Virus record (IMG/VR): IMGVR_UViG_3300044833_000114
Location: 1 to 64,000 of that record
Source: a virus
DNA: 64,000 bases
Strand: one strand, 5' to 3'
Shown here: one piece after another, positions 3,818-64,000 of the stretch
Position numbering within the stretch: the first letter of the stretch is position 1
Layout: every line of letters starts with the position of its first letter
The notes under the pieces: generated by a model
The model's database searches: none
What the model saw: the letters and a program-made list of their open reading frames with translations, nothing else
What the model was told of the DNA's origin: nothing
Position numbers and translations under genes: made by a program

Positions 3818-3834
3818 GGATCGAAAGGGGCCAC

Positions 3835-6443: not shown

Positions 6444-6473
6444 CATGCCACCACTGGTCAGTATTACGGAGGG
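6444..6473 (+). promoter_or_regulatory. 30-bp repeat copy 2, putative late promoter heading the packaging/structural operon
   Basis: Identical to 2879-2908. Confidence 0.6.
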
Positions 6474-6477
6474 GAGA

Positions 6478-6636
6478 GTGCGATACCAATATAGCTGTTC
6501 TGGTTGTGACGGAACCGTTTCCAAGCCTGCCGTGAGTACGGACAAGGAAGGGAAAATGGTCCACGGTCTTCACGGCTGGAAGTGCCCCACCTGTGGGCCC
6601 ACGAGTGTCAAACGTTCCCTGAAAAATTCTGATTAG
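6478..6636 (+). CDS. Small Zn-ribbon protein
   Basis: CSGC...WKCPTCG; GTG after GGAGGGG (ORF track start is 6445). Confidence 0.6.
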   Translation: MRYQYSCSGCDGTVSKPAVSTDKEGKMVHGLHGWKCPTCGPTSVKRSLKNSD

Positions 6637-6654
6637 TCACCTGGAGAAATCCCG

Positions 6655-6855
6655 ATGCCCGTATATGTCTATGAGTGTTCTGAAGGTCACCAAACAGATC
6701 GCGTGAAATCGATCAAAGTTTCTGATCGAGTTCTGAACAACGATGTTTGCGAAATCTGTGGAAAGAAAGCAAAACTTATTCCTTCCCGCACCAGTGCCCC
6801 GATCCTTGTTGGTCGCGGTTTTCATGCGAACGACTACGCGGCACCCACCAGGTAA
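6655..6855 (+). CDS. FmdB-family zinc-ribbon protein
   Basis: MPVYVYECSEGH...CEICG...GRGFHANDY. Confidence 0.85.
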   Translation: MPVYVYECSEGHQTDRVKSIKVSDRVLNNDVCEICGKKAKLIPSRTSAPILVGRGFHANDYAAPTR

Positions 6856-6881
6856 GTAAAACCCACCCATCGTTTGTTGAG

Positions 6882-6915
6882 GGGCGACCTTTCCCGAGGT
6901 CGCCCTTTTTCTTTT
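6882..6915 (+). terminator. Intrinsic terminator
   Basis: GGGCGACCT/AGGTCGCCC stem followed by TTTTTCTTTT. Confidence 0.75.
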
Positions 6916-6926
6916 GGAGAATCACC

Positions 6927-7172
6927 ATGAGTTTTTTCAAAGGCCTCGTTGACGATCGCATGAAAGACGTCAACCCCGTCCAGGTCATCACCATCGCTCT
7001 CGGATTGGCCATCATTGTGTGGGGGTCGCATGTTGCGTTTCACACGCACGCTATGCCGAACCTGAACGGAATCGGTGAAGCCCTTGGCGGGGCTGGTCTA
7101 GCGAACGCAGCGCACAAAGCGGAAGACATCATCGACAAGTTCAAGAAGCCAGTCGATCAGCCTAAAGGGTAA
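6927..7172 (+). CDS. Small membrane protein, possible holin
   Basis: RBS GGAG; hydrophobic helix and charged C-terminus; near the endolysin. Confidence 0.55.
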   Translation: MSFFKGLVDDRMKDVNPVQVITIALGLAIIVWGSHVAFHTHAMPNLNGIGEALGGAGLANAAHKAEDIIDKFKKPVDQPKG

Positions 7173-7177
7173 TCATC

Positions 7178-7369
7178 ATGCCGTTTGAAAGCCTCGCACA
7201 AGAAGGGTTCGCTCACGAGCACCCAGAGAAGTTCGGCGGCAAAGCTGTAGTCAAAGAGTTTGATCAAGCAACGAAGGGAAAGAAGCTCCCGAAGCGCAAG
7301 CGTCCGAAGCCAGAACCAGAACCTCCAAAGCCCTCAGTTCGTATGAGGCACCACGCGCGCCCGCGCTAA
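7178..7369 (+). CDS. Small basic phage protein (MPF-S-AQ type)
   Basis: MPFESLAQ...EFDQATKGKKLP pattern seen ahead of packaging genes. Confidence 0.65.
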   Translation: MPFESLAQEGFAHEHPEKFGGKAVVKEFDQATKGKKLPKRKRPKPEPEPPKPSVRMRHHARPR

Positions 7370-7380
7370 GGAACAAGATC

Positions 7381-8121
7381 ATGGCTACCCCAGATGGAGT
7401 GAAGCAGGCCGCGGATGCGGTCGCAGCGAGCAAGAAGGTTCTAGACGATGCCGACAAGTTTCAGAAATCGGCCGGCGGACCACTTAAGAAGGAAACGCCA
7501 GCTGCGCCTGTTAAGTCTGCTCCGAAAGCTAAAAGCTCGGGACTGCTAGCTGAAACAGAGTCTGCAGCCGCGGGTCTTAAAGCCAAGTCGGCCGCTGTCA
7601 AGGAATACACCGACTCCCTTCCGAAAATGCACGACGGTGGGAAAGTCGAGAAAGATGGGGCCCACAATCTTAAGAAGGGCGAGACCGTTCTTCCGGCGGA
7701 TGAAAAGAAAGCCGTGAAAGTTCTGAAGTCCAAAGCATCCGGTGTGATGTCTGCCGCGATGGACGAGGACGACGAGCCGAAGGGTGAAGAGAAGAAAGAG
7801 TCCAAGAAGGACGAGAAGTCGGAAGGAAAGCACAAGACCTCCGACAAGCACAATCCGGCGCACGAAGAGAAGACGGTGAAACATAACTTTCACCGCACAG
7901 AAACCATTCATCACAAAAACGGATCACATACCGTAACGCATTTTCCGCACCCACCGAAGCCGTCGACCGATGGCAGCCCGGTTGAGCAGGATGAGCCAGT
8001 TAGCTACGCCGCGCCAGATATGGCCAGCCTTCACCAAGGCATGGACGCCAATCTCGGCGGCGGAGAAGCCGGCGGAGAACCTAGCGGCGCCCCCGAAGGC
8101 GGAGCCCCAGCACAAGCATAA
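7381..8121 (+). CDS. Hypothetical low-complexity protein
   Basis: RBS AAGGA; K/A/E/H-rich. Confidence 0.75.
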   Translation: MATPDGVKQAADAVAASKKVLDDADKFQKSAGGPLKKETPAAPVKSAPKAKSSGLLAETESAAAGLKAKSAAVKEYTDSLPKMHDGGKVEKDGAHNLKKGETVLPADEKKAVKVLKSKASGVMSAAMDEDDEPKGEEKKESKKDEKSEGKHKTSDKHNPAHEEKTVKHNFHRTETIHHKNGSHTVTHFPHPPKPSTDGSPVEQDEPVSYAAPDMASLHQGMDANLGGGEAGGEPSGAPEGGAPAQA

Positions 8122-8170
8122 AACGAAGAACCGAGAACGACCCGGATTGGGTCCTTCGAAGGTCACGGTC

Positions 8171-10114
8171 ATGTCCGAACCCATTTTTAAGACGGAGTAT
8201 TTGTACGCAGAAGCGAACACTCTTGCGGCGAAGTCTGAAGAAATACTTTCAGTAAAGCACTTCTGGAAGGTCGCCGATCGCGACCTTGCAGGCCCAGCTC
8301 CGAAGACTCTTGAGGAGCTCATTCTCCGCGCGAAGAACTACATCGCACTGGACATCGCGATCGCGAAAGCACCAGACCAGACGAACGCCGACGTTGCAGC
8401 TTGTGTCAAGCGGCTGGAGATTTTGAAGAACTGTCCGTCGTCCCTCGAGACGATGAACTTTCTTCGGTTCATGTGCCGCACGAACTTGCTGTTCCTCGGC
8501 CGAGAGATGTTCAACAGGGCGTTCACGTTTTTGACGCACGCGCCTGTTTGCAACTTCTTCGTGCAGAAGGATTCCAGCAAAGAGATCTACGAGCAAGACG
8601 AAACGAAAGAGCGTCTGCTTCTTTACCCTCGCGGCAGTTTCAAGTCCACGCTCGACGTCATCGATTGCGTTCAGTGGATCATCAACTTCCCGAACATTCG
8701 TATTTTGATTCTCGCGGCCGAGACCGGCCTGGCCACTTCGTTCATCGGCGAAATGAAGAATTATTTCTTCGTCCCGAAGAACGGAGAGCCCACCAATTTC
8801 CAGAAGCTCTTCGTCGAGTGGACCATTTCGTCCAGGACGGAAGGCGCCGAGGACCAGTTCATTTGCCCGTGCCGCTCCGTCGGCGACGAGAAGAAGAAAG
8901 ATCCGACAGCATGGTCGGCATCGATTCTGTCGAACCTGCCTGGTTGGCACTGCGACCTGGCGAAGGGCGACGACGTCGTCAACGACAAGAACTCAGAAAC
9001 GTCGGCCCTCGTAGCCAAAGTAATTCGCAAGGTCAATTACGCCGCGTCTCTCGTGGACCCAGGCGGATTCATAGATTTGCTCGGCACTCCGTACGCCGGC
9101 AATGATCTCTACACATTCACCGCGGAGAAAGCGGAAGGCAACGAGCTTCGTAAGTTGGCTGTTCCGTCCCGCTGGTTGATCCCGGCATCGCAGCACAAGG
9201 ATGACCGCGATTGCACCGACGTGGATTACGAACTCTTGTTTGAGTTCGATAAGACCGGTCGCAAGCGCCTGACGAACGATTTTCTCAACAAGAAGAAGCG
9301 CAAAGACCTTGGCATTTATTTGTCCCAGTACATGCTGAACGCGTCGGGCATTCGCAAGGTGAAGTTTTCGATGGACCTGATGGTCTCTCGAACGATCTCA
9401 CTCGAGCAGCTTCCGCATCAGCTTCGGTACTACATCCTCTGGGATTTCGCCTACGCGGCTCACCTGGGCAGCGATTATTCGTGCGGAGCGGTGATCGGCT
9501 TAGACGTCGAGAATCGCGCATACGTCGTGGAGGTCTTTCGCGACCACTACATCGACAGCGAGCTAGCGAGGGAGGTTGTCACCTCCTATCAGAAGTATCA
9601 GCCGCGGTTGGTGTGCATCGAGAATTCTAACGGCGCTCAGTTCCTGGAACAGACGATCCGTCGATACGCAGAAGAGGCGGGGATTACGTACATCCCTCTG
9701 GACTTCTTCAAGGTCGACAATTCAGCAAACGCAAAGGCAGCCCGAGTGGGCTCTTTGCAGCCTCGTCTTCTCGGCGGCGAGCTGTTCTTCATGAACACGC
9801 TCACTTGTCTGGAGGATCTCTACAAAGAGTTCAAAGATTTCGGAACGTCAACGCACGACGACATTCCGGATTCCATCAGCCATTACCTTCGAGTTCTTCC
9901 GGCCGGTGTCACCGAACCTGGAGGACCTGGCGGGAAAGAGCGCATGGAGAAATTCCACAAGGCGCTCAAAGAAAAAGATTTCTACGACATGATCTTCCAG
10001 CAGGGAGATTACGCACCAGTCGTTTCGCAAGCACCCATCGTTCCTGAATTCGGCACCGGTGAGTCGCCCGACACAGACCTCTACGATCCGTACGGGATCC
10101 CGAACTTTAAATAA
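8171..10114 (+). CDS. terL: Terminase large subunit
   Basis: Walker A LYPRGSFKST, Walker B AKGDD, GTPY, nuclease motifs WDFAY / DYSCG / CIEN / HDDIPDS. Confidence 0.92.
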   Translation: MSEPIFKTEYLYAEANTLAAKSEEILSVKHFWKVADRDLAGPAPKTLEELILRAKNYIALDIAIAKAPDQTNADVAACVKRLEILKNCPSSLETMNFLRFMCRTNLLFLGREMFNRAFTFLTHAPVCNFFVQKDSSKEIYEQDETKERLLLYPRGSFKSTLDVIDCVQWIINFPNIRILILAAETGLATSFIGEMKNYFFVPKNGEPTNFQKLFVEWTISSRTEGAEDQFICPCRSVGDEKKKDPTAWSASILSNLPGWHCDLAKGDDVVNDKNSETSALVAKVIRKVNYAASLVDPGGFIDLLGTPYAGNDLYTFTAEKAEGNELRKLAVPSRWLIPASQHKDDRDCTDVDYELLFEFDKTGRKRLTNDFLNKKKRKDLGIYLSQYMLNASGIRKVKFSMDLMVSRTISLEQLPHQLRYYILWDFAYAAHLGSDYSCGAVIGLDVENRAYVVEVFRDHYIDSELAREVVTSYQKYQPRLVCIENSNGAQFLEQTIRRYAEEAGITYIPLDFFKVDNSANAKAARVGSLQPRLLGGELFFMNTLTCLEDLYKEFKDFGTSTHDDIPDSISHYLRVLPAGVTEPGGPGGKERMEKFHKALKEKDFYDMIFQQGDYAPVVSQAPIVPEFGTGESPDTDLYDPYGIPNFK

Positions 10115-10123: not shown

Positions 10124-12253
10124 ATGTCACGCGTCGATCCGCTGAAAGGCACAAGTACAGCGGGACTCCTCAAGCAAGAAGACGTCAAGAGCCCCATGGA
10201 AGTGACGGATGATGCTGCGCTGAAGATCGTAACACTCGACGCAAAGATGACTCGGTCCTGGATCGAGAGTCGCTATTTCAATATCCGATGGGTCGAAGTT
10301 GACCTGCTGTATCAATCCCCTCCGACGCTAAGAACGTGGGAAGGGACGTCGATGCCGAAGGCGAACATCGCCAAGTTCACGGTTGCGACTCACGTCAACG
10401 CCATCAACTCAAAGCTCGTTGGCGGTTTGTTCTACGAAGAGCCTCCATTCAGATTGACTCCGAAGCCGAGTCTCTCTGCGAACACAGCTCGCGCAATCGA
10501 AGAAATAAGTTCCACACAGCTTGACGAGATGAACTTCAAGCAGGAAGTGAAGTACGGATTTTTCTCGTGCCTGCTAAACGGAACCGGAATTTGGAAGTGG
10601 GGCTGGAAGGATTATTACAAGACTGATTGGGAGTTCACTCCCGTCGACGAACCTATGAAGGTAACAGGGTCGGACGGTCAGACGTCAGAAGTTCCGACTC
10701 AAGATTCTGACAACTTCAAAATGACGCGGAAGGAGAATCTTTGCGCTCATCCGTTCTTCGAGAACTGCGATATTCGTACGGTCCTGGTCGACCCAGGCTG
10801 CCGCGTTCCTGATATTCGCTTTGCCAAGTTCGTCATTCACGAATTTCCCGTCACGTACAAAGACCTGATGCGGATGAAGGACGAGGTCTACTACAACGAA
10901 AAGAACGAACCGATTTACCGTTACAACCTTCCGAGCGAAGAGGTAGTTCGCCAGTGGTTCGACGGAACTCAAGCCATGGATCAGGGTCAGGCTATCGCCG
11001 GCCAGAACATGGTATCGGGTCAGAACAACACGCAATTCGTTCAGCACGCGGCGCCCCTGTTCCAAAAGACGACAGAGGATCCACTGAACGAACCACTGCT
11101 CCTTCAAGAGCGTTGGGACTGCGACAAGGTCATCACCGTCCTTGCCGGACAGCGTGTGATCCGCAACGAGCCTAACCCGTTCGGTTGCATTCCATTTTAT
11201 TCAGTCAACTGGTGGATGATCCAGGATTGCTTCTGGGGCCTCGGCCTTGGGACCGCCCTGGGAGGCGAGCAGCGCCTCCAGCAAGGTTTCATCAACGCCG
11301 TTGCCGATATCGGTACGTTAGCAGCTAATCAACCTATCATCAGATCGCGCGGCGCGAACATCAACACCCAGCAAGTTCGAGCTCGGCTTGGTGGCTTCAT
11401 CGACGTCGATGGAGACGCGACGAAGGCGATGCATCCGATGGATCTTCCCAAGATTCAAGGGGAGATGTTCCAGGTTGTCGCGGCTTCCGAGTCACGCACC
11501 GAGTCGACTTCAGGCGCGAGCGAAATGCTCACGATGGGTTCATCGAAGCCCAGCGGTCGCGGTTCGTCCATGGGACGAACAGCTACTGGCGCGGGAAACA
11601 TGATGCAAGCAGCCGTCGATCGTATCGGCGGACTGGTAGAAGACTTCAACCGACAAGTGTTCCAGCCGTGGTTGTGGAAGATGTACGACCTCAATCGTAT
11701 GTTCCTTCCGCCATCCGTGTTCCGCGAAATCCTCAACGACAAGCTCGACAAAGAAGTTCACGCCTCGTTCAAGGACTTCATGGGAGCCAAGAAGGGCATT
11801 AAGGCCTTCTCCGTTCTTGCTGGTAGTCACATGGCCGCGCGTCAGCAAATGGCGCAGTCGATGCCGTTGATTATGCAGTATTTCACGAACCCAGCACTGG
11901 CCGGTCAGATTGCCGACATCAACGGGGAGTACATCGCTTACTCCGAATTGCTCCACATGCTAACGGATGTGAGCGGTTACGGGAGCGGATCCTACTACTC
12001 CATCTTCCGACCTCTAACAGCCCAGATGAAAGCGCAGCGCGCCGCACAGAATCCGGCCGCAGCCAAGATGGCAGCGCAGTCAGCTAACAACACGCAGAAG
12101 GGTGACATCAAGTCCCAGTTGCAATCGCAACAATGGACGGAGCGAGCGGCCGGAGACATCATCCGCCACTCACTTAAAGCAGCCGGAGACACTGAAGCAG
12201 TTCAAGGAAGTCCCGGCGGAAATGGATTTGGAAGTCAAGAACTTGAAGCATAA
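10124..12253 (+). CDS. Portal protein
   Basis: 709 aa directly after TerL; GTGIWK, VLVDP, IRNEPNPFG..PF, FWGLG, RTATG patterns. Confidence 0.88.
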   Translation: MSRVDPLKGTSTAGLLKQEDVKSPMEVTDDAALKIVTLDAKMTRSWIESRYFNIRWVEVDLLYQSPPTLRTWEGTSMPKANIAKFTVATHVNAINSKLVGGLFYEEPPFRLTPKPSLSANTARAIEEISSTQLDEMNFKQEVKYGFFSCLLNGTGIWKWGWKDYYKTDWEFTPVDEPMKVTGSDGQTSEVPTQDSDNFKMTRKENLCAHPFFENCDIRTVLVDPGCRVPDIRFAKFVIHEFPVTYKDLMRMKDEVYYNEKNEPIYRYNLPSEEVVRQWFDGTQAMDQGQAIAGQNMVSGQNNTQFVQHAAPLFQKTTEDPLNEPLLLQERWDCDKVITVLAGQRVIRNEPNPFGCIPFYSVNWWMIQDCFWGLGLGTALGGEQRLQQGFINAVADIGTLAANQPIIRSRGANINTQQVRARLGGFIDVDGDATKAMHPMDLPKIQGEMFQVVAASESRTESTSGASEMLTMGSSKPSGRGSSMGRTATGAGNMMQAAVDRIGGLVEDFNRQVFQPWLWKMYDLNRMFLPPSVFREILNDKLDKEVHASFKDFMGAKKGIKAFSVLAGSHMAARQQMAQSMPLIMQYFTNPALAGQIADINGEYIAYSELLHMLTDVSGYGSGSYYSIFRPLTAQMKAQRAAQNPAAAKMAAQSANNTQKGDIKSQLQSQQWTERAAGDIIRHSLKAAGDTEAVQGSPGGNGFGSQELEA

Positions 12254-13093: not shown

Positions 13094-13267
13094 ATGTTTA
13101 CAGAAATCAAAGCTTATTTCGCCGAGATCGATGCAGAAGCGAAGCTCAAAGCACAGACTCTGATCATCAAAACATACCACAAGATTCTCGCCGAGGACGC
13201 CGCGCTAGTCGCGAAGATTGAGGCTGAGCTGGCCGCAGCGGTCGAGTACGTTGAATCAAAGGTTTAA
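13094..13267 (+). CDS. 57-aa helical protein (not in the ORF track)
   Basis: RBS TAAGGAG; MFTEIKAYFAEIDAEAK...VESKV. Confidence 0.75.
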   Translation: MFTEIKAYFAEIDAEAKLKAQTLIIKTYHKILAEDAALVAKIEAELAAAVEYVESKV

Positions 13268-13272
13268 TCGTC

Positions 13273-13482
13273 ATGAATCCATGGGTCAAAGGACTGTTAG
13301 GCGGATCCATAGCGGGAGCGGGCCAAGGAGTTCTCATGGGTCTGGCTGCCAACGGTATCGCCCCAGGACAGTTTAATTTTCATGGCCACGCGCAAGGAAT
13401 TTTTGTGATAGCCGGGTTGGCTGCTTTGTTCGGTTCGATCATCGGCACCGCGACATACCTCGCGAAGAGTCCCCTCCCGTAG
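13273..13482 (+). CDS. Small two-TM protein, possible holin
   Basis: Two Gly/Ala-rich hydrophobic segments; ends YLAKSPLP. Confidence 0.6.
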   Translation: MNPWVKGLLGGSIAGAGQGVLMGLAANGIAPGQFNFHGHAQGIFVIAGLAALFGSIIGTATYLAKSPLP

Positions 13483-42217: not shown

Positions 42218-43333
42218 CTACGCTGCTTGCGTCTGTTTTCCCAGTCCTGATTGAGGGTGAACAGGGTGAAGCAGAGATGGAATCGAGTTGAGAATTCGCT
42301 TCCTGTACTCTGGTCTGAGATGAGTGTATAGCTTGACCATTTCATCGCTACCGTGCCCAATCCAAGCGCGAATCGTTTCGATTGGCGTGTTGCATTCGAC
42401 AAGATAGCTGACCCTGCCGTGCCGGAAAGCGTGCGTCCCAGATTGCGGGATGCCCAGTTTTCTCAGCAGCGGATACAGAACCCGGTTGAGAATTCTCGGA
42501 TGTTTGAACGTGGTTCCGTGTTTCGTTTGAAACACGAAGCCGAGTGTTCTACCGTTCAAATGTTTTTTGATCATCTCACCCAGGCCGATCTGGATATCGA
42601 TTGTCCGATAAGCTTTCAGGCTCTTCGGACTTTGAACCTTGCCGCGCCGTACCGACCGTCGAACATGGATCAGTAAGCGTTGCAGATCGACATCCTCGAC
42701 GCGCAACCCGTACGCTTCCCCTGAGCGCAATCCTGTTTCAGTAAAGACTGCGAACAAAGTCTTGTACGGCTCTCTCACGGCATCAACGATCATCTGCATC
42801 TGCTCCGGAGAATGACAAGGATGCTGCCGCCTCGGTTCCAAGGCGGACGGAAAGTGGATCAGCGTCTTATCAAATTTTCTTCCGAGAACCATCTGCAGCG
42901 TCTTCGCGATCCCGCGTTGGGTGTACGGCGATAACCTCGACAGTGATCCCAACCACTCGTTCACCGACTCTTCCCCGATCAAATCAACCGGATGCTTCCC
43001 CCACTGCGGGAGAAGATACGTGTTGATGTGCCAGTTCATGGTGTCCTGAGTGCCTAGTTTCTGCCGCACGAGATACATCTGCGTCCACCTGATTACGCGT
43101 TTTTCGAATAACTCGCTGGACGGGATAACATACGACGGCTCGTTTAAGCCTTCGGATGCTATGACCGATTTAAGTTTCCGGCGAGCTTCTGATTTGGTCA
43201 TTTCCGAGACAGGTCCTAGGACGACCGCTTTGTTGACGCGCCGATCCTGCCCTGGCACATCCACAAGATAGCGACCACGATATGACCCGCTACGGACTTC
43301 AACTGAACCGTTCTGCCCGATTCTACGAGACAA
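42218..43333 (-). CDS. int: Tyrosine integrase
   Basis: Arm-binding-like N-terminus (SRRIGQNGSVE, probable TTG start); TGLRSGE, PKS, HAFRH, IGH, LYTH. Confidence 0.93.
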   Translation of the reverse strand: MSRRIGQNGSVEVRSGSYRGRYLVDVPGQDRRVNKAVVLGPVSEMTKSEARRKLKSVIASEGLNEPSYVIPSSELFEKRVIRWTQMYLVRQKLGTQDTMNWHINTYLLPQWGKHPVDLIGEESVNEWLGSLSRLSPYTQRGIAKTLQMVLGRKFDKTLIHFPSALEPRRQHPCHSPEQMQMIVDAVREPYKTLFAVFTETGLRSGEAYGLRVEDVDLQRLLIHVRRSVRRGKVQSPKSLKAYRTIDIQIGLGEMIKKHLNGRTLGFVFQTKHGTTFKHPRILNRVLYPLLRKLGIPQSGTHAFRHGRVSYLVECNTPIETIRAWIGHGSDEMVKLYTHLRPEYRKRILNSIPSLLHPVHPQSGLGKQTQAA

Positions 43334-43403
43334 CGATTTACCCCGCTTTCTCGTTGAATCGGCGTCGGCTATCACGGTATCAGGTTTAGGAAATTGGATC
43401 AAA

Positions 43404-43649
43404 CTAGGCGTCCAGACGTTCCAGAATTCGGTCGACGATGGCGTAACAATTGACTTCTCCGACTTCCGCGTAGCTACAAATTCCCTCGCGAACAATGTCC
43501 ACCAGTTCTTCTCGGAGATCTTCCTCGGTGGTGTCTTCCTCTTCCGGTTCCTCCTCCCAGGGGTGGTATCCAAACTGCGTCCGGTTGTTGTGGACGGAGT
43601 TCCGGGGCGACATGCGACACTTCTTGCACGGATACGCGGAGACGCTCAT
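43404..43649 (-). CDS. Hypothetical protein
   Basis: CKKC..H..H, acidic; coupled to the upstream stop. Confidence 0.65.
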   Translation of the reverse strand: MSVSAYPCKKCRMSPRNSVHNNRTQFGYHPWEEEPEEEDTTEEDLREELVDIVREGICSYAEVGEVNCYAIVDRILERLDA

Positions 43650-44698: not shown

Positions 44699-44909
44699 CT
44701 GATCACCCTATCGCGAAACAAATAACCGATCGCAAAACAAAGACCGCCAAACACAACCACCACTGCTACGGGGTACCAATCCATCAGAACCACTCCCATA
44801 ATTCGTTGTCTTTCAACGGGTAGAAAACATGACCGCGCGAAGAATAGTGTGACGACCACACAAACAGACCGTGTTCGGTTCGGATCAAGAGTTCGTTGCA
44901 TCGCCAAGG

Positions 44910-45113
44910 CATCAGTAGTACTCCTTCAACTCGTGGTCCTTACAAATGGCGTTTGTTGCTTGAGCCATGCCACAGATTCTTTTGTCGGATACTTGTACAG
45001 GTGCAGCGTCCCGGGCGTGTATTTCTGCCCGTTCATAAAGGCGATTTGCTTTGCTTCTTCCAGCGTGGCCTGTTCGTACTCAACCTTGTTCATCAGTAGT
45101 ACTCCTTCAACTC
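44910..45113. repeat. 23-bp direct repeat flanking a 55-aa ORF (44926-45093)
   Basis: CATCAGTAGTACTCCTTCAACTC at 44910-44932 and 45091-45113. Confidence 0.9.
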
Positions 45114-45599
45114 ATGTGCCTTCGCGATCGCGCGTTCCTTAGCTGTAGCTCCGACGTAGCTGATCATGACCCCCACTGGCGGACACACGCTCCACCACTC
45201 CATGGTGTCGAACCTCTTATCGATGCCGACGGCGATGTTGGCAACCCACTCCACGTTCTTGAGGCACTCGAGATATCGGTTGTTGTTTGTCATCCCTCTT
45301 TCGTACGGATGGCTCTGAACGAACTTCCTAAGCTTCACCAGGGCAATGCTGTCCTCCAGCTGCTTGATGAGATCAGGCGTCTCGCCCTTGACTGTGAGTT
45401 TCAGGCTGTCGAACATTTCCTTCGTGAATATAGGGGGGACCAATATCTTTTTGTCACTCCAATTCATGTACTGGACGGGACCGGGGCCGACCGGTACCCT
45501 AACAAGTTTCTCTTTCTCAACAGCGGCTGGCTTCGTCGGATGGAGTTCGAACCATCGCTTGCGTAGTAATGCTTCTTTCTGTTCGAGCGTTGACATCAA
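45093..45599 (-). CDS. Hypothetical protein
   Basis: Coupled ORF within the array. Confidence 0.7.
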   Translation of the reverse strand: MMSTLEQKEALLRKRWFELHPTKPAAVEKEKLVRVPVGPGPVQYMNWSDKKILVPPIFTKEMFDSLKLTVKGETPDLIKQLEDSIALVKLRKFVQSHPYERGMTNNNRYLECLKNVEWVANIAVGIDKRFDTMEWWSVCPPVGVMISYVGATAKERAIAKAHELKEYY

Positions 45600-47805: not shown

Positions 47806-48729
47806 TCATGCGATCTCCTTAGGAAGCGTGAATCCCAATCCAGCTTTCGCAGCCCACTGCTTGCGGAGCTCCTCTTTCTCGCCGAGCTTCGAATAACGAT
47901 CGGTGATGCCCTGCCCTTCGTGGCCCACCCAGTAGCGGATGATGTCCTCAGGCACGCCGATCTCGCGCAGCCGGGTAATCCGGAGACGCCGGAATGCGTG
48001 GAAGCCCTTGATGCCCAGGGGCTTGAGGCTGTACTTCTTCAGGTGACTCTCCCAGAGGGGCGTGCCCTCGCTCGTCTGGAACAGATAGGCGCCGGCCGGG
48101 AGGGTTCGAGAGGCTGTGTAGCCAACCAGGAACTCGTTCAGCTTAGGGTCCAGGTCAACGATCCGAACAGCCGCGGGGGTCTTTGGGTCCTGTTCCTGAC
48201 GGCCCCACAGGCTCAGCCGGACGTCTATGGCAGCCTTTGTGGGATCCCAGCCTGTGTGCACCCCGTCCCAGCCGTATCGCACGGCTGTGGCTTCACCTAT
48301 GCGAAGACCGGTACCTGCAAGGATGGCGTAGAACACTCCGTAGCGATCCTTGAGAGCTGCCGCCAGCTGCTCATCGGTGACCGTGGGTTGCTTCTGCTTG
48401 ACGACCGGGGGCAGGTCGATGAACTTGTGGTTCCATTCTCGAGGATAGAGGAGCACTCCGTCTGGGCTGACAGCCGAGGCCACGATCTGCTTGGTCAGCG
48501 AGACCACCTCGGTGATACTCTTGGGGCCCAGGCCTTTCGCCTGCAGGTCCCGAGCGAACTTGCGTAGGCCTCCGTTGTTGAAGGTCGCGAGATCCTCGGC
48601 ACCGAGCAGAGGCAGGACGTGGTTCTTCAGGTAGGAGTTGTAAGCCTGAAGAGTCGCAGGCTTGATCGGGCCGCAATTCCTCGTGGTTAGATCTCTCACC
48701 AATTCTTCCGACTGCTGCGCGAAGTTCAT
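47806..48729 (-). CDS. Second tyrosine recombinase lacking an arm-binding domain
   Basis: TGLRIGE, PKT, FHAFRR, VGH, TDRYS; 307 aa. Confidence 0.9.
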   Translation of the reverse strand: MNFAQQSEELVRDLTTRNCGPIKPATLQAYNSYLKNHVLPLLGAEDLATFNNGGLRKFARDLQAKGLGPKSITEVVSLTKQIVASAVSPDGVLLYPREWNHKFIDLPPVVKQKQPTVTDEQLAAALKDRYGVFYAILAGTGLRIGEATAVRYGWDGVHTGWDPTKAAIDVRLSLWGRQEQDPKTPAAVRIVDLDPKLNEFLVGYTASRTLPAGAYLFQTSEGTPLWESHLKKYSLKPLGIKGFHAFRRLRITRLREIGVPEDIIRYWVGHEGQGITDRYSKLGEKEELRKQWAAKAGLGFTLPKEIA

Positions 48730-57190: not shown

Positions 57191-57931
57191 TCACGCTGCC
57201 ACCTCCATGATTTGAATTAACTGCGGTTGCTGCACCAGGTGCGTCGTCGGCTGCACGAAGCCGGAGCAGTCTTTCCTTGCGCGTCCCTTTGCGCGCAGAC
57301 CGATGATGCGGCTGTGTGGGTCCGTCTTGAAACGAAGGTCGTGCAAGTCTCCGTCGTAGACTTTGTACCCTTGCCACGTCTTCGGAAGCTGATGTCCTCG
57401 CTTGACGCCAAACACTACTGCAACGTTGACTCCGTGCATTAGTGCGTCCATAGCGTCGTCGATGTTCGTCTCTGATAGTGAGAACGTCAAATGGTAGTTA
57501 GGCAATGTCCGTTCCCATGGTCGCGGGTGTTTTGTGTAGTCGTAAAGCTGAACGTGTGGAAACATCGGCGCAATAGTGTGAGCTAAGTACGGAAGATCAG
57601 ACGTTCCGTTGAGTCGCACGCAAGGCTTTAGGCCGTCACGTTTCGCCTTACGGACGAGTGCTTCAATCTCCGAACACAATTGTAGCACGAACGCCGAACG
57701 ATCTTGAATCAAAAACTTCGTCTTCCGAATGCGCGCTCGGTTGATCATCGGAAACGCAGCCGCCCTGCCTGCAGTGAACAGGCAAGCCGCCTTGCATCCC
57801 GCTGACGCCGAAGCACATGTGTTGGTGACGCCGGACGAATCAGCTGGAGCGAGATAAAGGATCCCTGTTAGATAACCCTTCTTCTCACCCTTGATCGTCT
57901 TGGCGTCGTGGCTTACGGATAGTAGTTTCAT
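57191..57931 (-). CDS. Gp88-like protein (radical-SAM-like fold)
   Basis: C....AGCKAAC, VRLNGTSD, YDYTK, NYHLTFS, DGDLHDLRF, GLRAKG. Confidence 0.8.
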   Translation of the reverse strand: MKLLSVSHDAKTIKGEKKGYLTGILYLAPADSSGVTNTCASASAGCKAACLFTAGRAAAFPMINRARIRKTKFLIQDRSAFVLQLCSEIEALVRKAKRDGLKPCVRLNGTSDLPYLAHTIAPMFPHVQLYDYTKHPRPWERTLPNYHLTFSLSETNIDDAMDALMHGVNVAVVFGVKRGHQLPKTWQGYKVYDGDLHDLRFKTDPHSRIIGLRAKGRARKDCSGFVQPTTHLVQQPQLIQIMEVAA

Positions 57932-58262: not shown

Positions 58263-58340
58263 TTGGGGCACACAAGTGCATCCCGCACCACGGCCTTGTT
58301 AATTAACAGGGCCGTGGTATGTGAGGCGCTTTGCTTACTC
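58263..58340 (-). promoter_or_regulatory. Structured intergenic element, copy F (divergent)
   Basis: GAGTAA..long hairpin..CGGGA..CCCCAA then AGGAG. Confidence 0.55.
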
Positions 58341-58782
58341 TTTTTCTTGTACGGGTGTGACGACTGCGATCAGTCCGGGTCGGCGCATCTCCCCGAACTT
58401 TCTAGCTGCAGCCTGGTCCATTGCGCGGATGATGGTGTAGGTTTGTCCGTCCTTCTCGTCTCGCACTAGGTTCTCGGGGCGCACGCTGCCCCGATACCAC
58501 TCGATGCGGTACCGCCGGCGGTCAGACATTTCGCTCATCTTGTTCGTAGGCGAGCTGGTCCAGATAATCCTCTGAACCTTTCAGCGTGTGTTTCTTCACG
58601 TTGTTCAAGACTTCCTCCAGCTCCTCGACCGAGATGACGTTGGCCGCGATGCAGTATTCGCGCAAGTCGAGAATACGCACCTCGGCTGTCTCTGCGTTCT
58701 TGGCGAACACGGTATCATGAAACCACTGCTGCTCGTCGTTGTCGTAGCTGATGACCAAGTAGCGGTTCAGTTTTTTAGGCAT
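58335..58782 (-). other. Two small hypothetical genes (58335-58538, 58522-58782)
   Basis: Coupled ORFs. Confidence 0.6.
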
Positions 58783-59392
58783 TGTGTTCTGCTCCGTATT
58801 TCTGCGCGGCTGTTTCGCCTTGCGCGGTTAGCTTTGCTATGTGTGCTGCTTCGCTCTTCGCGGCTGCTGTGGCTTCTTCCCTGCAGTACTTGATATCGCC
58901 GATGAAACCCCAGCACGAATCCAGGTGCGAGTCTTCTGGGCTCTCGATGATGTAGCCGTAGACTTCGCCGGTGAGATAGCTGTCGTACTCGGATACCTCA
59001 GCCACCAGCAAGTCGATCGCTTCCTGACGCCGCTTCTTGGTGACGTTCTTGCACATCCAGTTCTCACGGATATCTTTCTTCTCCGCGTAGATGAATCCAA
59101 CCTGACCGCTGTCCCACGGACAAGAGAACGGGGAAGTACGCATCGTGATGCCGCTGTGGTCGTAGAGATAAAGCGGCAGAGCTACGCCGCCCTCTTTCTC
59201 AATGCGCTCCACGAACTCTTTGGCTTCTTCCACGCTCATGCTGTGCTTGTCGCCCAGGTCGTAGCGACGGTGAAAGCAAACCATGTGGCCGAAGTTGTCG
59301 TGGTCGGTGCGCGGATTGAATGGTTCAGAGTCCTGCAAGATGCGAACGGTTAGCCCGTCCACCTCGAAGCGCTCTACGTCATCGTTGTGCAT
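58775..59392 (-). CDS. Conserved phage early protein
   Basis: LPLYLYDHSGITM..WDSGQVGFIY..YLTGEVYGY..DSCWGF. Confidence 0.8.
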   Translation of the reverse strand: MHNDDVERFEVDGLTVRILQDSEPFNPRTDHDNFGHMVCFHRRYDLGDKHSMSVEEAKEFVERIEKEGGVALPLYLYDHSGITMRTSPFSCPWDSGQVGFIYAEKKDIRENWMCKNVTKKRRQEAIDLLVAEVSEYDSYLTGEVYGYIIESPEDSHLDSCWGFIGDIKYCREEATAAAKSEAAHIAKLTAQGETAAQKYGAEHNA

Positions 59393-59406
59393 ACGTTCTC
59401 CTTTTA

Positions 59407-59463
59407 TTGGGCGAGTGATGCCCGACAGCGCCACCATCACTGATGGCGCTGGCATGCTCACTC
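59407..59463 (-). promoter_or_regulatory. Structured intergenic element, copy E
   Basis: GAGTGA-GCATGC-hairpin-TCGGGCATCACTCGCCCAA. Confidence 0.8.
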
Positions 59464-60628
59464 CCTGTCTATGTTGAACCACTGCTCTCCCAGCTCTTCT
59501 TTCTGCTCGGTGCTTAAGGCTTCGTTTAAGACTTGAAACAAGGTCTCTTCCGGCAGCACGTTAATAACCTGCCGAAGTAAATCTGCGGTTTGCTCTGTTG
59601 TCAGCTTTCCGATATCGATCATGCTTCCTCCCTTTTTGCGTAAGATGGTGCGAAGAACTCGAACAAATCTGCGTCGTGTTCGCGCAGGAATTCCCACTCG
59701 CGGTCAGACAAGAGCAAATCATCTGCTGGAGTTGATTCGAGATTGTCATAATCGAGAAGGTCTATATCGACGCCTCCCTCATTGATTGCTATATTGGCGA
59801 CACCTCCGTTGATCGTCACAAGCAAATACGGCTTAAATGCTTGCGCGATCTTCTTGCTTGCCGTCCTGAGTCGTCCGTGCTCCAAAGCGCTCGCGGCACT
59901 CCGGAGTAAACGTGCTTGTTCTGCTCTGGTCATTTCGCCTCCAATGATTTGTTGTGCAGCTTGACGATGTGCTTTGCGACTTTCTCGGATATAGCTACTC
60001 CGGTGACTTCTTCTTCGCCGTCTTCGCTTGTGATGATGAACATCCCGGCGTGTAGACCGTAGGTCTTCTCGTCATCTGCAAGCTGCCATACCGCCCATTT
60101 CTGCTTGAGTATGTTCATGACACCTTCCTTTCGTTCTGCGCTACGTGGCGCGGGCAGTACTTGCTTCCTTGGGTTGCGTCTTCGATGCACAACCCGGCGT
60201 CGCAGCACGAAGGTCCGTAGCTTATTTCTGCTCCCGCCAAAATATCCGAAAGCTTGTGGTAGGCGTCGCGCGCCGGTCCCTCCGACTCTTCGCCGGAGAA
60301 CTCACGGTCGATGAACTGCGTGTACTCCGCGCGCTTCTCGTTGACTTCAATCGTGATCGTGATCTTTGCACTCATGCTGCCTCCCTTTCCTGCTTCTTAA
60401 ACTCAAGTTTCTGCTTTGGTTTTGGTGTCGGCCTCACTGCGCGGCCGAAAGAGAGTACGAAACCTACAGACACAACGAACCACGCTGAGAAAACTCCTGC
60501 TGCTATCATCAGGCCTCCCTTTCTATGAACGGCTGCACGCGGTTTGCTTCGCGCTGCCATCCCTCAAACTCTTGAATCTCCAGCTCCAGCTCTGTTTCTG
60601 TTTGTATTTCTGTTTGAGTCTCTTGCAT
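59458..60628 (-). other. Six small hypothetical genes
   Basis: Coupled ORFs with GGAG-type RBS, e.g. 59619-59933, 60115-60375. Confidence 0.6.
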
Positions 60629-60641
60629 GTTTCTCCTTTGC

Positions 60642-60698
60642 TTGGGAAGTGAATCCCGACGCGCACCCTCTCAGCGAAGGTGCGCGGCATGTTCACTC
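60642..60698 (-). promoter_or_regulatory. Structured intergenic element, copy C
   Basis: GAGTGAACATGC-hairpin-TCGGGATTCACTTCCCAA. Confidence 0.8.
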
Positions 60699-61626
60699 AC
60701 GCTGCGACTGCTGCCAGCTCCGGTTCTTGTTGCGGTTGCTCTACGGGCTTCTCGAACTTCACGTCTCGGATGTGATCGCAGGCTTTCTGCGCCGCGCTGA
60801 TGGATTGCATCAGCATCTTCTTGTTGTTGTCGTTGAGCTTGAGCTTCTCAAGCCAGTGCTTGATGTAGGCCGCACTGTTCTCGACGACCGCAGGGGCGAT
60901 GCCGACGACACCGCACAGCATCGAAGCGCCGAACTCTGCGACCAGCTCCTCAGCGCTGTACTTGTCGCCGCCAAAGCCATCACCGTTCGTGATGCCTTCG
61001 CGACTCAGCCTCTTGAGTGCGCCGGTTGAGTGCACCATCTCGTGGAACAAGGTGCTGTAGTATTCGCGTTGCTCCTTGAATGCTCCGCGAACCGGCGTGC
61101 CGATCAGGTCTTCGGACGGACGGTAGAAGGCTGCACCGGCGTCCACCAGCTTCGGCTTATCCGGGTATCCATCCCAGATTGCTTGCGCCGCCGGCAGATC
61201 CTCGATTGGTGCCTGGGGTTTGTTGAGCCCGAGTTCTTCGGCTAGCTCCGGGTTGCACTGGGTGATGTTGAAGACGTGCCAGGTCTTCCAGTACCCGGCG
61301 CGCGTGGTGCCGTCCTCGCCCGTCTCTTCGTTCCTGCTCTTGCGGTCATAAACTGCGTACTTGCAGATCGCAGTTCCCTTCTCACCCTTCATGACGTGAC
61401 CGCCCAGGTCCTTGGCCTGCTTCGCAGTGAGCCACCAGGGAGAAGCCTTCTGCTGCAACATGAGCAGGAAGACATTCATTCCGCGGTACTCTTTCTGACT
61501 GATGAGATTCTTGGGAAGGCCTTGACTGACCCAGGGCTTGCGCCACGGGACAGTGCCTGCCTCAAGCTGCGATATGATCTGGTCTGCCGCTTGCTGATAC
61601 GGCGACACTTTCTTCTGGTCTTCCAT
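60697..61626 (-). CDS. ardC: ArdC-family antirestriction protein (ssDNA-binding plus zincin)
   Basis: PWRKPW, YRGMN, WLTAKQA..LGGHV.KGEKG, TLFHEMVHSTG, EELVAE. Confidence 0.92.
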   Translation of the reverse strand: MEDQKKVSPYQQAADQIISQLEAGTVPWRKPWVSQGLPKNLISQKEYRGMNVFLLMLQQKASPWWLTAKQAKDLGGHVMKGEKGTAICKYAVYDRKSRNEETGEDGTTRAGYWKTWHVFNITQCNPELAEELGLNKPQAPIEDLPAAQAIWDGYPDKPKLVDAGAAFYRPSEDLIGTPVRGAFKEQREYYSTLFHEMVHSTGALKRLSREGITNGDGFGGDKYSAEELVAEFGASMLCGVVGIAPAVVENSAAYIKHWLEKLKLNDNNKKMLMQSISAAQKACDHIRDVKFEKPVEQPQQEPELAAVAA

Positions 61627-61637
61627 AGTCACCTCGA

Positions 61638-61688
61638 TTGGGAATGAGTCCCGGTCGCCCTACCAAGGCAGGGCGAACGCGTTCACTC
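61638..61688 (-). promoter_or_regulatory. Structured intergenic element, copy B
   Basis: GAGTGAACGCGT-hairpin-CCGGGACTCATTCCCAA. Confidence 0.85.
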
Positions 61689-61973
61689 CGTAGGTATGTC
61701 CAGCTCGAATTCAAACGGATTGAAGTAATGCGGACGATGTATCTCGTCGCCATCCCCGTCATAAATTGTGTTGTCGAAGTTCTCAATGAACTTCTCGACG
61801 TCGGCGGGCAGATCAACTCGCACTTTGAGAGCCGTGACGGTCGCGTATGAGCCTTCAACGTGCACGATTGTATTCAGAGCTTCACTCATGCACAGAGCTA
61901 TCGGGCAGTGATTTGGGTCGTCCTGTATTCCTCTCGCGATGTGGTCTTTCGTAACTTCAAATTTACGCAGCAT
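61683..61973 (-). CDS. Hypothetical protein
   Basis: RBS AGGAGG; VT..HI..G....CPIA. Confidence 0.75.
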   Translation of the reverse strand: MLRKFEVTKDHIARGIQDDPNHCPIALCMSEALNTIVHVEGSYATVTALKVRVDLPADVEKFIENFDNTIYDGDGDEIHRPHYFNPFEFELDIPTE

Positions 61974-61985
61974 TCGTCCTCCTGT

Positions 61986-62036
61986 TTGGGAATGAGTCCC
62001 GGCGAGCCCACCGTGATGGGCTCGACGCGTTCACTC
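61986..62036 (-). promoter_or_regulatory. Structured intergenic element, copy A
   Basis: Flanks identical to copy B with a different inner hairpin. Confidence 0.85.
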
Positions 62037-62222
62037 TGCGAAAGTAACGAACGTTATTTCGAAGTACTCATCCTGCGGCCCCGACTCATTGTCCATGCCT
62101 CGTTCCGGTTCGTACTCCTCTTTCCAGTACTCTTGCAACTTGTCTTCTGTTGGCTCTTCGCGAAACAGAGCGAAGTCTTCTCCGTGTCTGTGGTGATAAA
62201 TCCCCAACCAATGACCCTTCAT
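62031..62222 (-). CDS. Small acidic protein
   Basis: RBS GGAGG. Confidence 0.65.
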   Translation of the reverse strand: MKGHWLGIYHHRHGEDFALFREEPTEDKLQEYWKEEYEPERGMDNESGPQDEYFEITFVTFAE

Positions 62223-62509
62223 GCGACCTCCTGTTTTCCTGCGTAGTGGATTGTTGGCTTGCTAACGCTGGGTGGTGCGCCTTTCTTGTTGAGCACGTAG
62301 CCGTCGAAGTGCATGTCCCGCTCAATCTTCAAACCAAACGGGCCTTTGACAGACTGAAGCTCGGACAGATTGAAGTAGCCGAGTTCCTTCTCGTGGCCTT
62401 CGACCAGACCGAAGAACATAAACTCAGTCCATGTCTCCTTCGGGCATTCGGTGCAGTCGAAGCATGCATGCTCGGGGCAGACCAGCGAACCCTCGACTGC
62501 GTACCAGGA
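62219..62509 (-). pseudogene. DUF2958-like gene, 5'-truncated
   Basis: WYAVEG...FFGLVEGHEKELGYFNLSEL...IERD lies directly behind an in-frame TGA with no start codon. Confidence 0.65.
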
Positions 62510-62631
62510 TCACAGCGCCCTCCTTGTGTGGCCGCATCTTAGGCAACGCCACCACTTACCGAGTACGTTGGCTAACTCAAACTTGCGTTGCTTCTGACAA
62601 TGTGTGCAGGTCAGCCAGCGAATGTCGGGAG

Positions 62632-63149
62632 TCATAACACTCCCGCTGACTTCGCCACTTGTTCCTCAAAGTTGCCGTGGTCCAGCCATCGCGACACAAA
62701 CTTCGTGACGCAAGATTGTCCACAGACATCCGCATCGAATGCAGGATTAGTTCCGTTAGAATCTCCCGCTGCCATAATGCGAAGTTCGACGTCGCCACTC
62801 TTCAACGTAACCACGACGTGAATCCTCCACCAGTGGTTCGCCTCTTTCTTCGGCGCACCGCAACAATCGCAAACAACTACTTTGTTCATCATTGGTTGCC
62901 TCCAAAGTCGTACTCGAATGCAGCGTCGTGACCTAGCGTGCGCAGGCCCACCACCGTCATGCTGCCGTCTTTGGCGCGGTACTCTGAAGTGTCCGAATAG
63001 CGGAATTGTTGCTTAGGCCAATACTCTGAATCGTGCTTCCGTTGAACCCTTGGCCGCACAGGCTGTAGGGAGATGACTGTGTCCAGGGTGCCGTCATCTT
63101 CAAGACACACGTCGAACAGTACGCCGTTTGCGCGTATTCTCATCGTCAC
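62632..63149 (-). other. Two small hypothetical genes (62632-62892 Zn-finger; 62889-63149)
   Basis: CDCCG..DVCG..C; coupled ORFs. Confidence 0.65.
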
Positions 63150-63154
63150 GCCTC

Positions 63155-63215
63155 TTGGGGGAAAGTATCCCGCAAGCCCCCAAGCTAAGCCGGAGGGCTT
63201 ACGCGCTACTTACTC
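63155..63215 (-). promoter_or_regulatory. Structured intergenic element, copy D
   Basis: GAGTAAGTA..hairpin..CGGGATACTTTCCCCCAA. Confidence 0.7.
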
Positions 63216-63812
63216 CACAGCTTTCTTCCAGATGCTGAACGAGATGTCGAACTGACCTACGCCGTCGATGTTGAAGAGCAAACGCTTGTGACCTGCGTCG
63301 TGCAAGCGCTTGTATATCGCTTTAGGGTTGTCATTCTGTCCTGGGTGAAAGCCGCTCTCGAAGTCTCCTTCGAGCTTGATGTAGCCGTAATCGGCTGGGC
63401 TGATGTGGTCGTTGAGTGCACGGCGTGGGTTGTCTTCGATGCTTTCCAGATACTCTTCTATCGGGCAGCAGTCCACACAGAACAGCTCGCAGTCGTTCAT
63501 GATGAAGTAACTGGGCTGCCATCCCCAGCAGTTAGGGCTCATGCGAATAGCCTTGTTGCACTCCTGACAGTTAGACCATTCGTCCGACCACTCGATCTCG
63601 TAGCCGTAAGCTTCCAGCAAACGAGTCGCATCACCGGAGAACTTGTTCCAGTTGCCGAACAGAATTCCCTTCTTCGGGTCTTTGTAGCCTGGTTCCGCGT
63701 ACTCGTGGGACCAGCCTAGGTTCTCGATCTCGCTTTCTCTTGCTCGCAAATCGTATGGTCCGCAGGATGGCGGACGACACAGCGACTTGCGAAGAATGTA
63801 CTCTGGAGTCAT
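63210..63812 (-). CDS. Conserved phage hypothetical protein
   Basis: YAEPGY..GNWN..EWSDEW..CQEC..FESGFHPGQNDNP. Confidence 0.75.
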   Translation of the reverse strand: MTPEYILRKSLCRPPSCGPYDLRARESEIENLGWSHEYAEPGYKDPKKGILFGNWNKFSGDATRLLEAYGYEIEWSDEWSNCQECNKAIRMSPNCWGWQPSYFIMNDCELFCVDCCPIEEYLESIEDNPRRALNDHISPADYGYIKLEGDFESGFHPGQNDNPKAIYKRLHDAGHKRLLFNIDGVGQFDISFSIWKKAVE

Positions 63813-64000
63813 AGCAGTCCTTTCGCGTTGGGAGAATGTCCCGCAGCGCCCACACTCTCGGATGGGCGCTACGTGCTCTTCTCTCACTTATCCGTTCGGA
63901 TTCATTGCCTTCTCGCCCCAACCTCTGGGGTGAGGTTCTTCGTGGTCTACATATTCGTCGTCGCGTTCCGCTTCTATCTCGGCGCACCAGTTGCATGTAT

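Follow-up and report, generated by a model that had tools for sequence, protein, structure and literature searches.

Covarying two-state RNA hairpins in the early-gene gaps of an uncultured temperate soil phage: candidate RNase III processing sites

The window analyzed here comprises bases 1–64000 of the 93,931-bp IMG/VR virus record IMGVR_UViG_3300044833_000114, which CheckV rates as complete and which represents a temperate, uncultured phage from a soil metagenome; its gene set includes a large terminase, a portal protein, a helicase, an ArdC anti-restriction protein and two tyrosine recombinases. Nearly every gap between the small early genes of this phage is occupied by a copy of one RNA element, and the array continues past the end of the window to about 66.3 kb. 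With the six to eight further copies at 64.1–66.3 kb of the same record, the family has 13–15 paralogous members in this genome. The element can fold as a long irregular helix that joins the end of one gene to the ribosome-binding region of the next, or with the 3′ part of that helix forming a small hairpin of its own; we describe the positions of the copies, both structures, their covariation, the strand that folds and the presence of the element in related phages. It is quite possible, if a little short of an even chance, that these elements are cis-acting RNA modules that serve in intercistronic gaps as processing sites for the host RNase III, with a downstream end that refolds.

Layout and alternative folds of the elements

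The plus strand carries the structural genes and the minus strand is transcribed from about 42 to 67 kb; all copies of the element sit between co-oriented minus-strand open reading frames (ORFs) that bear Shine-Dalgarno (SD) sequences. The motif TTGGG-N5-14-CCCG occurs 12 times in the window, compared with 5.0 ± 2.1 times in shuffles (0 of 100 shuffles reached 12), and seven of the 12 occurrences cluster at 58.2–63.9 kb on one strand. A sequence-only reading of the window had listed six copies with the order 5′ arm, hairpin, CGGG-N-CCCAA, SD and AUG, and all six are present on the minus strand where it placed them and with that layout; its total was too low, as a seventh copy lies in the window at 63828–63885 and others lie beyond it. 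The copies are listed below (aa, amino acids; z, fold z-score against dinucleotide shuffles; bits, score under the covariance model R2 described in the next section).

Copy A (atypical), 58263–58341, minus strand: 5′ arm GAGUAA over the stop codon of a 67-aa ORF; upper hairpin 58286–58319, small 3′ hairpin 58265–58284, then AA and the SD; AUG 58248; z −4.3.
Copy B, 59407–59464, minus strand: arm GAGUGA:UCACUC over the stop codon of a 54-aa ORF (ending DRE*); upper hairpin 59426–59451 with a GUGA loop, small hairpin GGGC:GCCC 59409–59423; AUG 59392; z −5.2; 53.5 bits.
Copy C, 60642–60699, minus strand: arm GAGUGAA:UUCACUU with a 2-nt overlap with the ardC stop codon; upper hairpin 60660–60686, small hairpin GGGA:UCCC 60644–60657; AUG 60628; z −4.6; 48.7 bits.
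Copy D, 61638–61689, minus strand, directly upstream of ardC: arm GGAGUGA:UCAUUCC (one G·U), including the last codon and stop of a 96-aa ORF (PTE*); upper hairpin 61655–61676 with a CUUG loop, small hairpin 61640–61652; AUG 61626; z −4.3; 54.2 bits.
Copy E, 61986–62037, minus strand: arm holding the stop codon of a 63-aa ORF (FAE*); upper hairpin 62003–62024, small hairpin 61988–62000; AUG 61973; z −4.5; 64.5 bits.
Copy F, 63155–63216, minus strand: arm AAGUA:UACUU over the stop codon of a 200-aa ORF (AVE*); long upper hairpin 63171–63203 with a mismatch-interrupted tip, small hairpin 63159–63171; AUG 63143; z −3.1; 26.7 bits.
Copy G, 63828–63885, minus strand: arm GAGAA:UUCUC, 4 nt past the stop codon of an 88-aa ORF; upper hairpin 63842–63873, small hairpin 63830–63842; AUG 63812; z −5.9; 37.9 bits.
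Copy N2 (weak), 64164–64215 of the record.
Copy M (weak), 64753–64795 of the record.
Copy H (canonical), 65022–65073 of the record.
Copy Ix (canonical), 65290–65345 of the record.
Copy I (canonical), 65524–65575 of the record.
Copy J (looser), 65763–65822 of the record.
Copy K (looser), 66040–66102 of the record.
Copy L (looser), 66239–66298 of the record.

When each gap is folded separately, copies L, K, J, I, Ix, H, F, E, D, C and B share one long-helix architecture, which consists of a lower stem of 5–8 bp, a middle zone of two 2-bp steps among three 1×1 mismatches, and an upper stem of 9–11 bp. The helix is 22–24 steps long in 13 of 15 copies (three of the 15 are from relatives) and is the minimum-energy fold in 12 of 13; all 13 copies tested have fold z-scores between −3.1 and −6.4. 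The apical loop has four bases in seven of 12 copies from this genome (UACG, UGCG, CACG, CUUG, GUGA and GAAA), and several of these loops are members of the UNCG, GNRA and CUUG classes of stable RNA tetraloops. Copy A departs from this pattern: its 5′ spacer is long, its lower stem is weak, another fold has a lower energy than its long helix, and R2 fails to pick it up. In 11 of 15 copies the stop codon of the preceding gene falls at least partly within the 5′ strand of the lower stem, which accounts for the Glu at the end of five of the upstream proteins (GAG-UGA or GAG-UAA); the protein ends AE*, TE*, VE*, RE* and KE* reported by the sequence-only reading, together with the overlap with the ardC stop codon, were confirmed. 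The next AUG follows the end of the element by 9–17 nt in 14 of 15 copies; with the stop codon in the 5′ arm, this makes the element nearly the whole of the intercistronic gap. The inner hairpins differ in sequence and nevertheless stay paired, as had been claimed: copies D and E flank a single 96-aa gene, their flanks are identical (repeat family D7), and their upper hairpins are different and fully compensated.

A small hairpin with a stem of 4–6 bp, followed by AA and then by the SD, encloses the 3′ strand of the lower stem in its loop. Its stem is GGGA:UCCC in copies C, D, E, F and G and in the related metagenome contig L202, GGGC:GCCC in copies B, H and I and in a second relative, L203, GAGC:GCUC in copy L, GGUCAC:GUGACC in K, GACGC:GCGUC in Ix and GGGAA:UUCCC in the IMG/VR contig L021; at least six stem sequences are thus used, with compensated changes. 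Folded alone, the small hairpin has a z-score of −2.2 to −6.3 in 17 of 18 copies, and the conserved trailing CCC, which lies outside the long helix, is therefore explained by the small hairpin only. The long helix and the small hairpin are mutually exclusive in the predicted folds. Blocking the 5′ arm makes the combination of upper and small hairpins the predicted minimum-energy fold of 14 of 15 copies, whereas leaving it free favors the long helix by 0.7–8.7 kcal/mol (mean 5.7). Since blocking the arm switches the predicted fold and its release favors the long helix, the two competing pairings of the 3′ arm, with a covarying small hairpin, are real, as they were originally described.

The predicted accessibility of the SD and the AUG shows no consistent difference between the two states. 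Sequestration of the SD was considered as their purpose and was rejected on this ground, and a simple on/off translational switch is unlikely for the same reason; copy N2 is exceptional in that its 3′ arm overlaps the SD. These results bear on a reading in which the elements are never cut and act as structural spacers, that is, as intercistronic insulators or stabilizers that block 3′ exonucleases and Rho loading and are remodeled by the terminating ribosome. The ribosome would melt the lower stem, and the 3′ arm would snap into the small hairpin and tune re-initiation or 30S loading, with no endonuclease involved. Such a role would suit the position of the stop codon inside the 5′ arm in most copies, the short distance to the next AUG, the switch of the predicted fold on arm blocking, the modest energy gaps and the SD overlap of copy N2. 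It is harder to reconcile with the inconsistent change in accessibility, with the four copies whose stop codon lies outside the arm and with the first copy in L021, for which an upstream ORF is not evident, and it leaves the constant two-turn length and the conserved mismatch pattern unexplained. We regard uncleaved spacers as unlikely, though with an appreciable chance of being the right answer.

Covariation and the strand that folds

Ten copies (seven from this genome, two from L202 and one from L203) were aligned with MAFFT from sequence only. Under the long-helix structure 97.8% of the cells of this alignment hold standard pairs, and in 16 of 19 pairs both partners vary; no shuffle among 500 reached the alignment on any of five measures, and pairing falls to 34–45% when the partner columns are slid. 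The covariation that the sequence-only reading had described is thus borne out on an alignment made with no reference to structure. Separate per-stem covariation counts, which are partly circular because the stems came from each copy's own fold, agree with the alignment-based count. A comparison of cognate and non-cognate arms by the longest complementarity found anywhere (6.15 versus 5.31) was too noisy and was replaced by an in-register pair count.

Three checks that avoid such circularity support the family. A first covariance model, made from copies I, H and Ix, all of which lie outside the window, recovered copies E, G, F, D and B. The model R2 was built from the same ten aligned copies, with G and F outside the training set, and it detects both of these untrained copies (G, 37.9 bits, E 5e-7; F, 26.7 bits, E 3e-4). 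Over about 2.7 Mb of other phage and metagenome loci R2 gave a single further match, in L021 (28.7 bits). A structural descriptor that combines a hairpin, a lower stem, a nearby stop codon and an SD-start pair has 10 matches in the early block of about 7 kb (59.4–66.3 kb) and three in the rest of the 94-kb genome, both strands included. A mismatch-punctuated long hairpin of like architecture also lies on the minus strand at 57748–57799, about 130 nt inside a GP88-like gene (57191–57931); it has a 9-bp top and 1×1 loops, its R2 score is 19 bits (E 0.03) and its fold z-score is −3.5, and it could be an internal processing site or a chance occurrence. The motif TTGGGAGTTCACTCCCG at 10627–10643 in the portal gene has no flanking hairpin, stop codon or SD and was taken as chance.

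The folds of the elements contain 30 G·U pairs versus four A·C juxtapositions. In 13 of 15 copies the sense strand gives the more stable fold; the energies add up to −452.8 kcal/mol for the sense and −390.7 kcal/mol for the antisense strand, and the R2 scores are much higher for the sense strand (for example, 65 versus 22.6 bits). In addition, the sole lower-stem difference between copy B and its counterpart in L203 is a change from G-C to G·U. Because of these four observations and the stable tetraloops, the folding strand is the mRNA, which upholds the view that the element is an RNA folded in the mRNA sense.

The strand preference also bears on the possibility, raised by the sequence-only reading, that the elements are folded single-stranded DNA sites resembling integron attC, with cassettes moved by a phage tyrosine recombinase. 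They do resemble attC sites in forming a co-oriented array with about one gene per element, in their conserved flanks around a variable but structure-conserved center, and in their imperfect helix, and the phage encodes two tyrosine recombinases, neither of the integron type.

Tyrosine recombinase 1, 42218–43573: 451 aa, not integron type.
Tyrosine recombinase 2, 47806–48729: 307 aa, not integron type.

The 451-aa protein scores 39.1 bits against the integron-integrase model TIGR02249, whose cut-off is 265, and the 307-aa protein has no match; both genes lie 10–16 kb from the array. The elements have no R/L cores (RYYYAAC/GTTRRRY was not found, and the arms are GAGUGA, GCGAGU, CUAGUU and similar), their G·U pairs favor the mRNA-sense strand, which folds better, and they are coupled to a ribosome-binding site; an attC role would leave the second hairpin and the fixed SD spacing unexplained. 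An attC-like function is thus not supported and seems to us highly improbable.

Relatives and gene exchange at the elements

The closest relatives of the ArdC protein are 60–89% identical to it. A single-protein ArdC search of IMG/VR gave no match, and a blastn search of cultured phages did not find a close relative. In searches with an ArdC alignment, none of 80 viral loci (at most 45% identity) has the element, and of 80 metagenome loci only L202 and L203 have it; a further 80 genome ArdC loci, the best of which are from Acidobacteriota metagenome-assembled genomes (MAGs; 44%), were screened by script scans only and not with R2. R2 gave no match in four and then 151 Acidobacteriota genomes, but few candidates were scored and the result is hence uninformative. 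A loose DNA pattern searched in IMG/VR returned mostly chance matches, those in contigs L021 and L105 being real, and two tighter patterns returned chance matches only.

L202, whose ArdC is 61% identical, has two canonical copies with the arm GAGUGU:ACACUC. One of them lies directly upstream of ardC, the same place as copy D, and the gene content around ardC differs between L202 and this phage. In L203, bases 13238–13296 are 95% identical to copy B over 59 nt, whereas the nucleotide identity of the adjoining gene is 68.5%. The homology of L203 with this phage breaks off precisely at the 3′ edge of the element, and beyond it the two carry unrelated genes (only two relatives, L202 and L203, were compared). 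A 54-aa ORF near copy B is present in this phage and not in L203. L203 also bears further stop-to-SD hairpins with other arm sequences, one of which resembles copy L, and L021 and L105 have two copies each, with a different covarying arm and loop (AGGGU:AUCCU). In these two comparisons gene content near the elements differs, a point that the sequence-only reading had proposed to check.

This pattern makes a secondary evolutionary role of the elements as gene-exchange junctions between related phages likely. It fits module junctions like the PeSL (promoter-early stem-loop) cassettes of T4-type phages, which are composite terminator/promoter DNA motifs (PMC2839356, PMC4122927), and does not by itself explain the RNA-type constraints. 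Like PeSLs, the elements are short motifs repeated among small early genes that lack a known function, and they may sit where insertions, deletions or replacements distinguish related phages; unlike PeSLs, they have no sigma-70 promoter or terminator calls and show RNA-type covariation and two alternative folds. One might go further and see the main role of the elements as that of portable PeSL-like connectors that act at the DNA level, their conserved flanks providing homology for the exchange, insertion or deletion of small early genes, a role with which an RNA function would be compatible. The contrast between copy B and its neighboring gene in the comparison with L203, the end of homology at the element, the 54-aa ORF found on one side only, the identical flanks and different hairpins of copies D and E around a single gene, and the element directly upstream of ardC in both this phage and L202 amid different surroundings are all in keeping with such connectors. 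They would leave unexplained the compensated upper stems, the G·U bias, the second covarying hairpin and the fixed distance to the SD, the comparison extends to two relatives, and promoters and terminators of the PeSL kind are missing from the elements; as the main role this has, in our estimation, a small chance.

Hairpins in comparable positions lie in two further contigs. An unrelated phage contig of lower GC content, IMGVR_UViG_3300015242_000025 (L199), has at 10867–11502 a different stop-to-ribosome-binding-site family of three copies, with arms AUAGAUGA and UAUCUAU around variable hairpins of 13–16 bp and the SD and AUG directly after. In IMGVR_UViG_3300047313_000015 (L184), two intercistronic hairpins (7784–7839 and 8140–8191) have CUAG-containing arms over a UAG stop codon, variable upper stems of 10–12 bp and an ACC(C)AA tail before the SD; these possibly represent a remote branch of the same class.

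The first early gene is preceded by a non-coding, GC-rich leader of about 460–700 nt (record 66602–67300, or L121:2602–3300). The 459 nt of it that were folded form successive hairpins (z −3.0), Rfam contains no match to it, and long leaders are found at the same relative place in L203 (8830–9567) and L021 (about 5000–5470). The early minus-strand operon seems to start after this structured leader at about 66.6–67.3 kb.

Possible processing of the early message and comparison with known systems

If the elements are RNase III sites, the primary transcript would first fold into the irregular helix of 22–24 steps, in which a segment ending 9–17 nt before the next AUG is paired with the final codon and stop codon of the preceding gene. 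Host RNase III, recognizing about two turns of double-stranded RNA, would then cut in the conserved middle zone, where two 2-bp steps lie between three 1×1 mismatches and the 3′ strand carries CGGG; by analogy with phage T7 the cut would probably be on the 3′ strand only. The upstream cistron would retain the 9–11 bp, mostly tetraloop-capped hairpin, which would block 3′ exonucleases, and the downstream fragment, having lost its pairing partner, would refold its 5′ end into the small 4–6 bp hairpin (for example, GGGA...UCCC). The result would be a protective 5′ stem-loop followed by AA and the SD. We infer the cleavage, the enzyme, the cut site and the stabilizing effect from the structures described above and from what is known of RNase III.

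The ideal length of an RNase III substrate is 22 bp, and loops, bulges or mismatches at the target lead to a single-strand cut that leaves stabilizing 3′ hairpins; the T7 early precursor contains five RNase III processing signals (PMC3867540). We folded the five T7 early intergenic regions, and in R0.5 the order of parts is that of the elements: the gene 0.4 stop codon is overlapped by a 5′ arm, GAGUGAUAG, after which come an upper hairpin, an internal loop on the 3′ side, a 3′ arm, UUAUCACUU, the SD and the AUG. Dunn and Studier (in 1983) are said to have placed the T7 cuts 25–35 nt before the next start, and the conserved CGGG appears to lie at about this distance from the next AUG.

Several points weigh against processing by RNase III. 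R2 run on T7 bases 400–8000 gave a best match of 8.8 bits (E = 1), which is not significant; the likeness to T7 sites is therefore one of layout and not of homology, with no similarity by sequence or covariance model, and what stands of the comparison with T7 made by the sequence-only reading is the parallel in layout, through R0.5. The middle zone of the elements has three 1×1 mismatches, whereas T7 sites have a single asymmetric internal loop. The stop codon lies 4–129 nt upstream of the arm in copies H, G, M and N2, so that the overlap with the stop codon is frequent and not obligatory. Finally, the small hairpin could serve another purpose.

A search of the phage genes for an RNase III or a protein with a double-stranded-RNA-binding domain (dsRBD) found neither. 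Among isolate genomes and MAGs the nearest ArdC homologues are those of Acidobacteriota, and since they are only 44% identical the assignment of a host is weak. An RNase III gene is present in all four Acidobacteriota genomes that bear these nearest homologues, which is unsurprising and bears weakly on the real host.

Processing and gene exchange could also be combined in a bistable, ribosome-sensing connector that is cut and refolds: termination at the stop codon in the 5′ arm would decide between the long, cleavable helix and the small, protective hairpin, and the modules would double as junctions at which genes are swapped. We think this doubtful, with a modest chance of being correct. Translation of one early cistron would in that case determine how strongly the next is expressed and how long it lasts, and phages would swap small early genes together with ready-made expression signals.

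The conservation of CGGG...CCCAA and the position of the small hairpin, immediately 5′ of the SD in most copies, call to mind operators for an RNA-binding protein of the phage or host, or for a dedicated endoribonuclease, that reads this hairpin (a repressor, or a cutter like Cas6/Csy4), and many early ORFs have no known function. The loop sequences are variable, however, and track the 5′ arm, and in copies K, L and Ix the hairpin persists although its stem sequences are entirely different, which argues against sequence-specific recognition; nor was an RNA-binding or nuclease domain found in the ORFs scanned. The chance that the elements are such operators appears slight.

Neither Rfam nor scans for standard transcription signals identified the elements. 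Rfam, searched at permissive thresholds over 54–64 kb and 64–72 kb, matched no family. A sigma-70 promoter scan puts no site on any element, and no intrinsic terminator is called on the minus strand on any of them, the hairpins being followed by CGGG... and not by U runs; the elements are thus neither a known family of that library nor plain terminators. The best near-match in Rfam is that of copy Ix (L121:1284–1356) to mir-2300, which at 26.5 bits against a gathering score of 90 is not significant; it shows that Ix has the shape of a substrate of eukaryotic RNase III (Drosha/Dicer).

Two other kinds of repeat lie elsewhere in the window. An exact 30-bp direct repeat, CATGCCACCACTGGTCAGTATTACGGAGGG, occurs on the plus strand at 2879–2908 and 6444–6473, 3.5 kb apart. 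A 32-nt direct repeat occurs three times at 44782–45122 (72–100% identical, spacing 128 and 181 nt); read on the minus strand it is a conserved region of SD plus AUG, which suggests three small paralogous gene starts.

Should the elements prove to be processing sites, the strategy of T7 early mRNA, in which a long message is cut into hairpin-capped units, would extend to an unrelated temperate soil phage, with the added feature of a downstream product apparently built to refold into its own 5′ cap. The 13–15 paralogous copies, with strong covariation and two defined folds, are a substrate for testing how RNase III chooses its sites, and the same family is suited to asking what hairpins at the 5′ and 3′ ends contribute to the lifetime of each cistron. 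The elements appear to lie where gene content differs between related phages, and they are therefore useful landmarks for annotating gene boundaries in uncultured phage genomes.

Among known phage repeats, the SAS and ESAS sequences of Cluster K mycobacteriophages invite comparison (PMC3203893). SAS is a fixed 13-mer, GGGATAGGAGCCC, given there as of unknown function, and for the ESAS repeats the authors found little support for hairpin formation. Like the elements, SAS/ESAS occur in multiple co-oriented copies that are restricted to the non-structural genes and sit within a few bases of the start codon that follows. Their core is GGGA...CCC, and an upstream inverted repeat with a variable spacer accompanies roughly half of the SAS (PMC3203893). 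In our own reading, SAS carries an SD-like GGAG inside the motif. By comparison, the elements have the form GGGM-N5-7-KCCC-AA with a variable loop that is complementary to the upstream stop region, the SD lies downstream, and, unlike in ESAS, covariation is strong. A variable-loop motif with a downstream SD does not match a fixed 13-mer, and SAS/ESAS resemble the elements only in part.

The closest parallels in layout are the T7 sites R0.3, R0.5, R1, R1.1 and R1.3. In both systems several related copies are distributed over the gaps of the early region, and each copy is an irregular hairpin that spans about two helical turns and has unpaired positions between its upper and lower stems. In R0.5, as in most of the elements, the 5′ strand of the lower stem overlaps the stop codon of the preceding gene, and its 3′ strand is closely followed by the SD and AUG. 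The phage studied here is, unlike T7, temperate and from a soil metagenome, and cleavage of its elements is a prediction. Its elements have in addition a covarying small hairpin, which would cap the downstream 5′ end and has nothing comparable in the folded T7 sites. The kind of structure is thus already known, namely the intercistronic RNase III-type hairpins of phage early mRNAs; what is new is the sequence family, which is in no library searched, and its covarying second hairpin.

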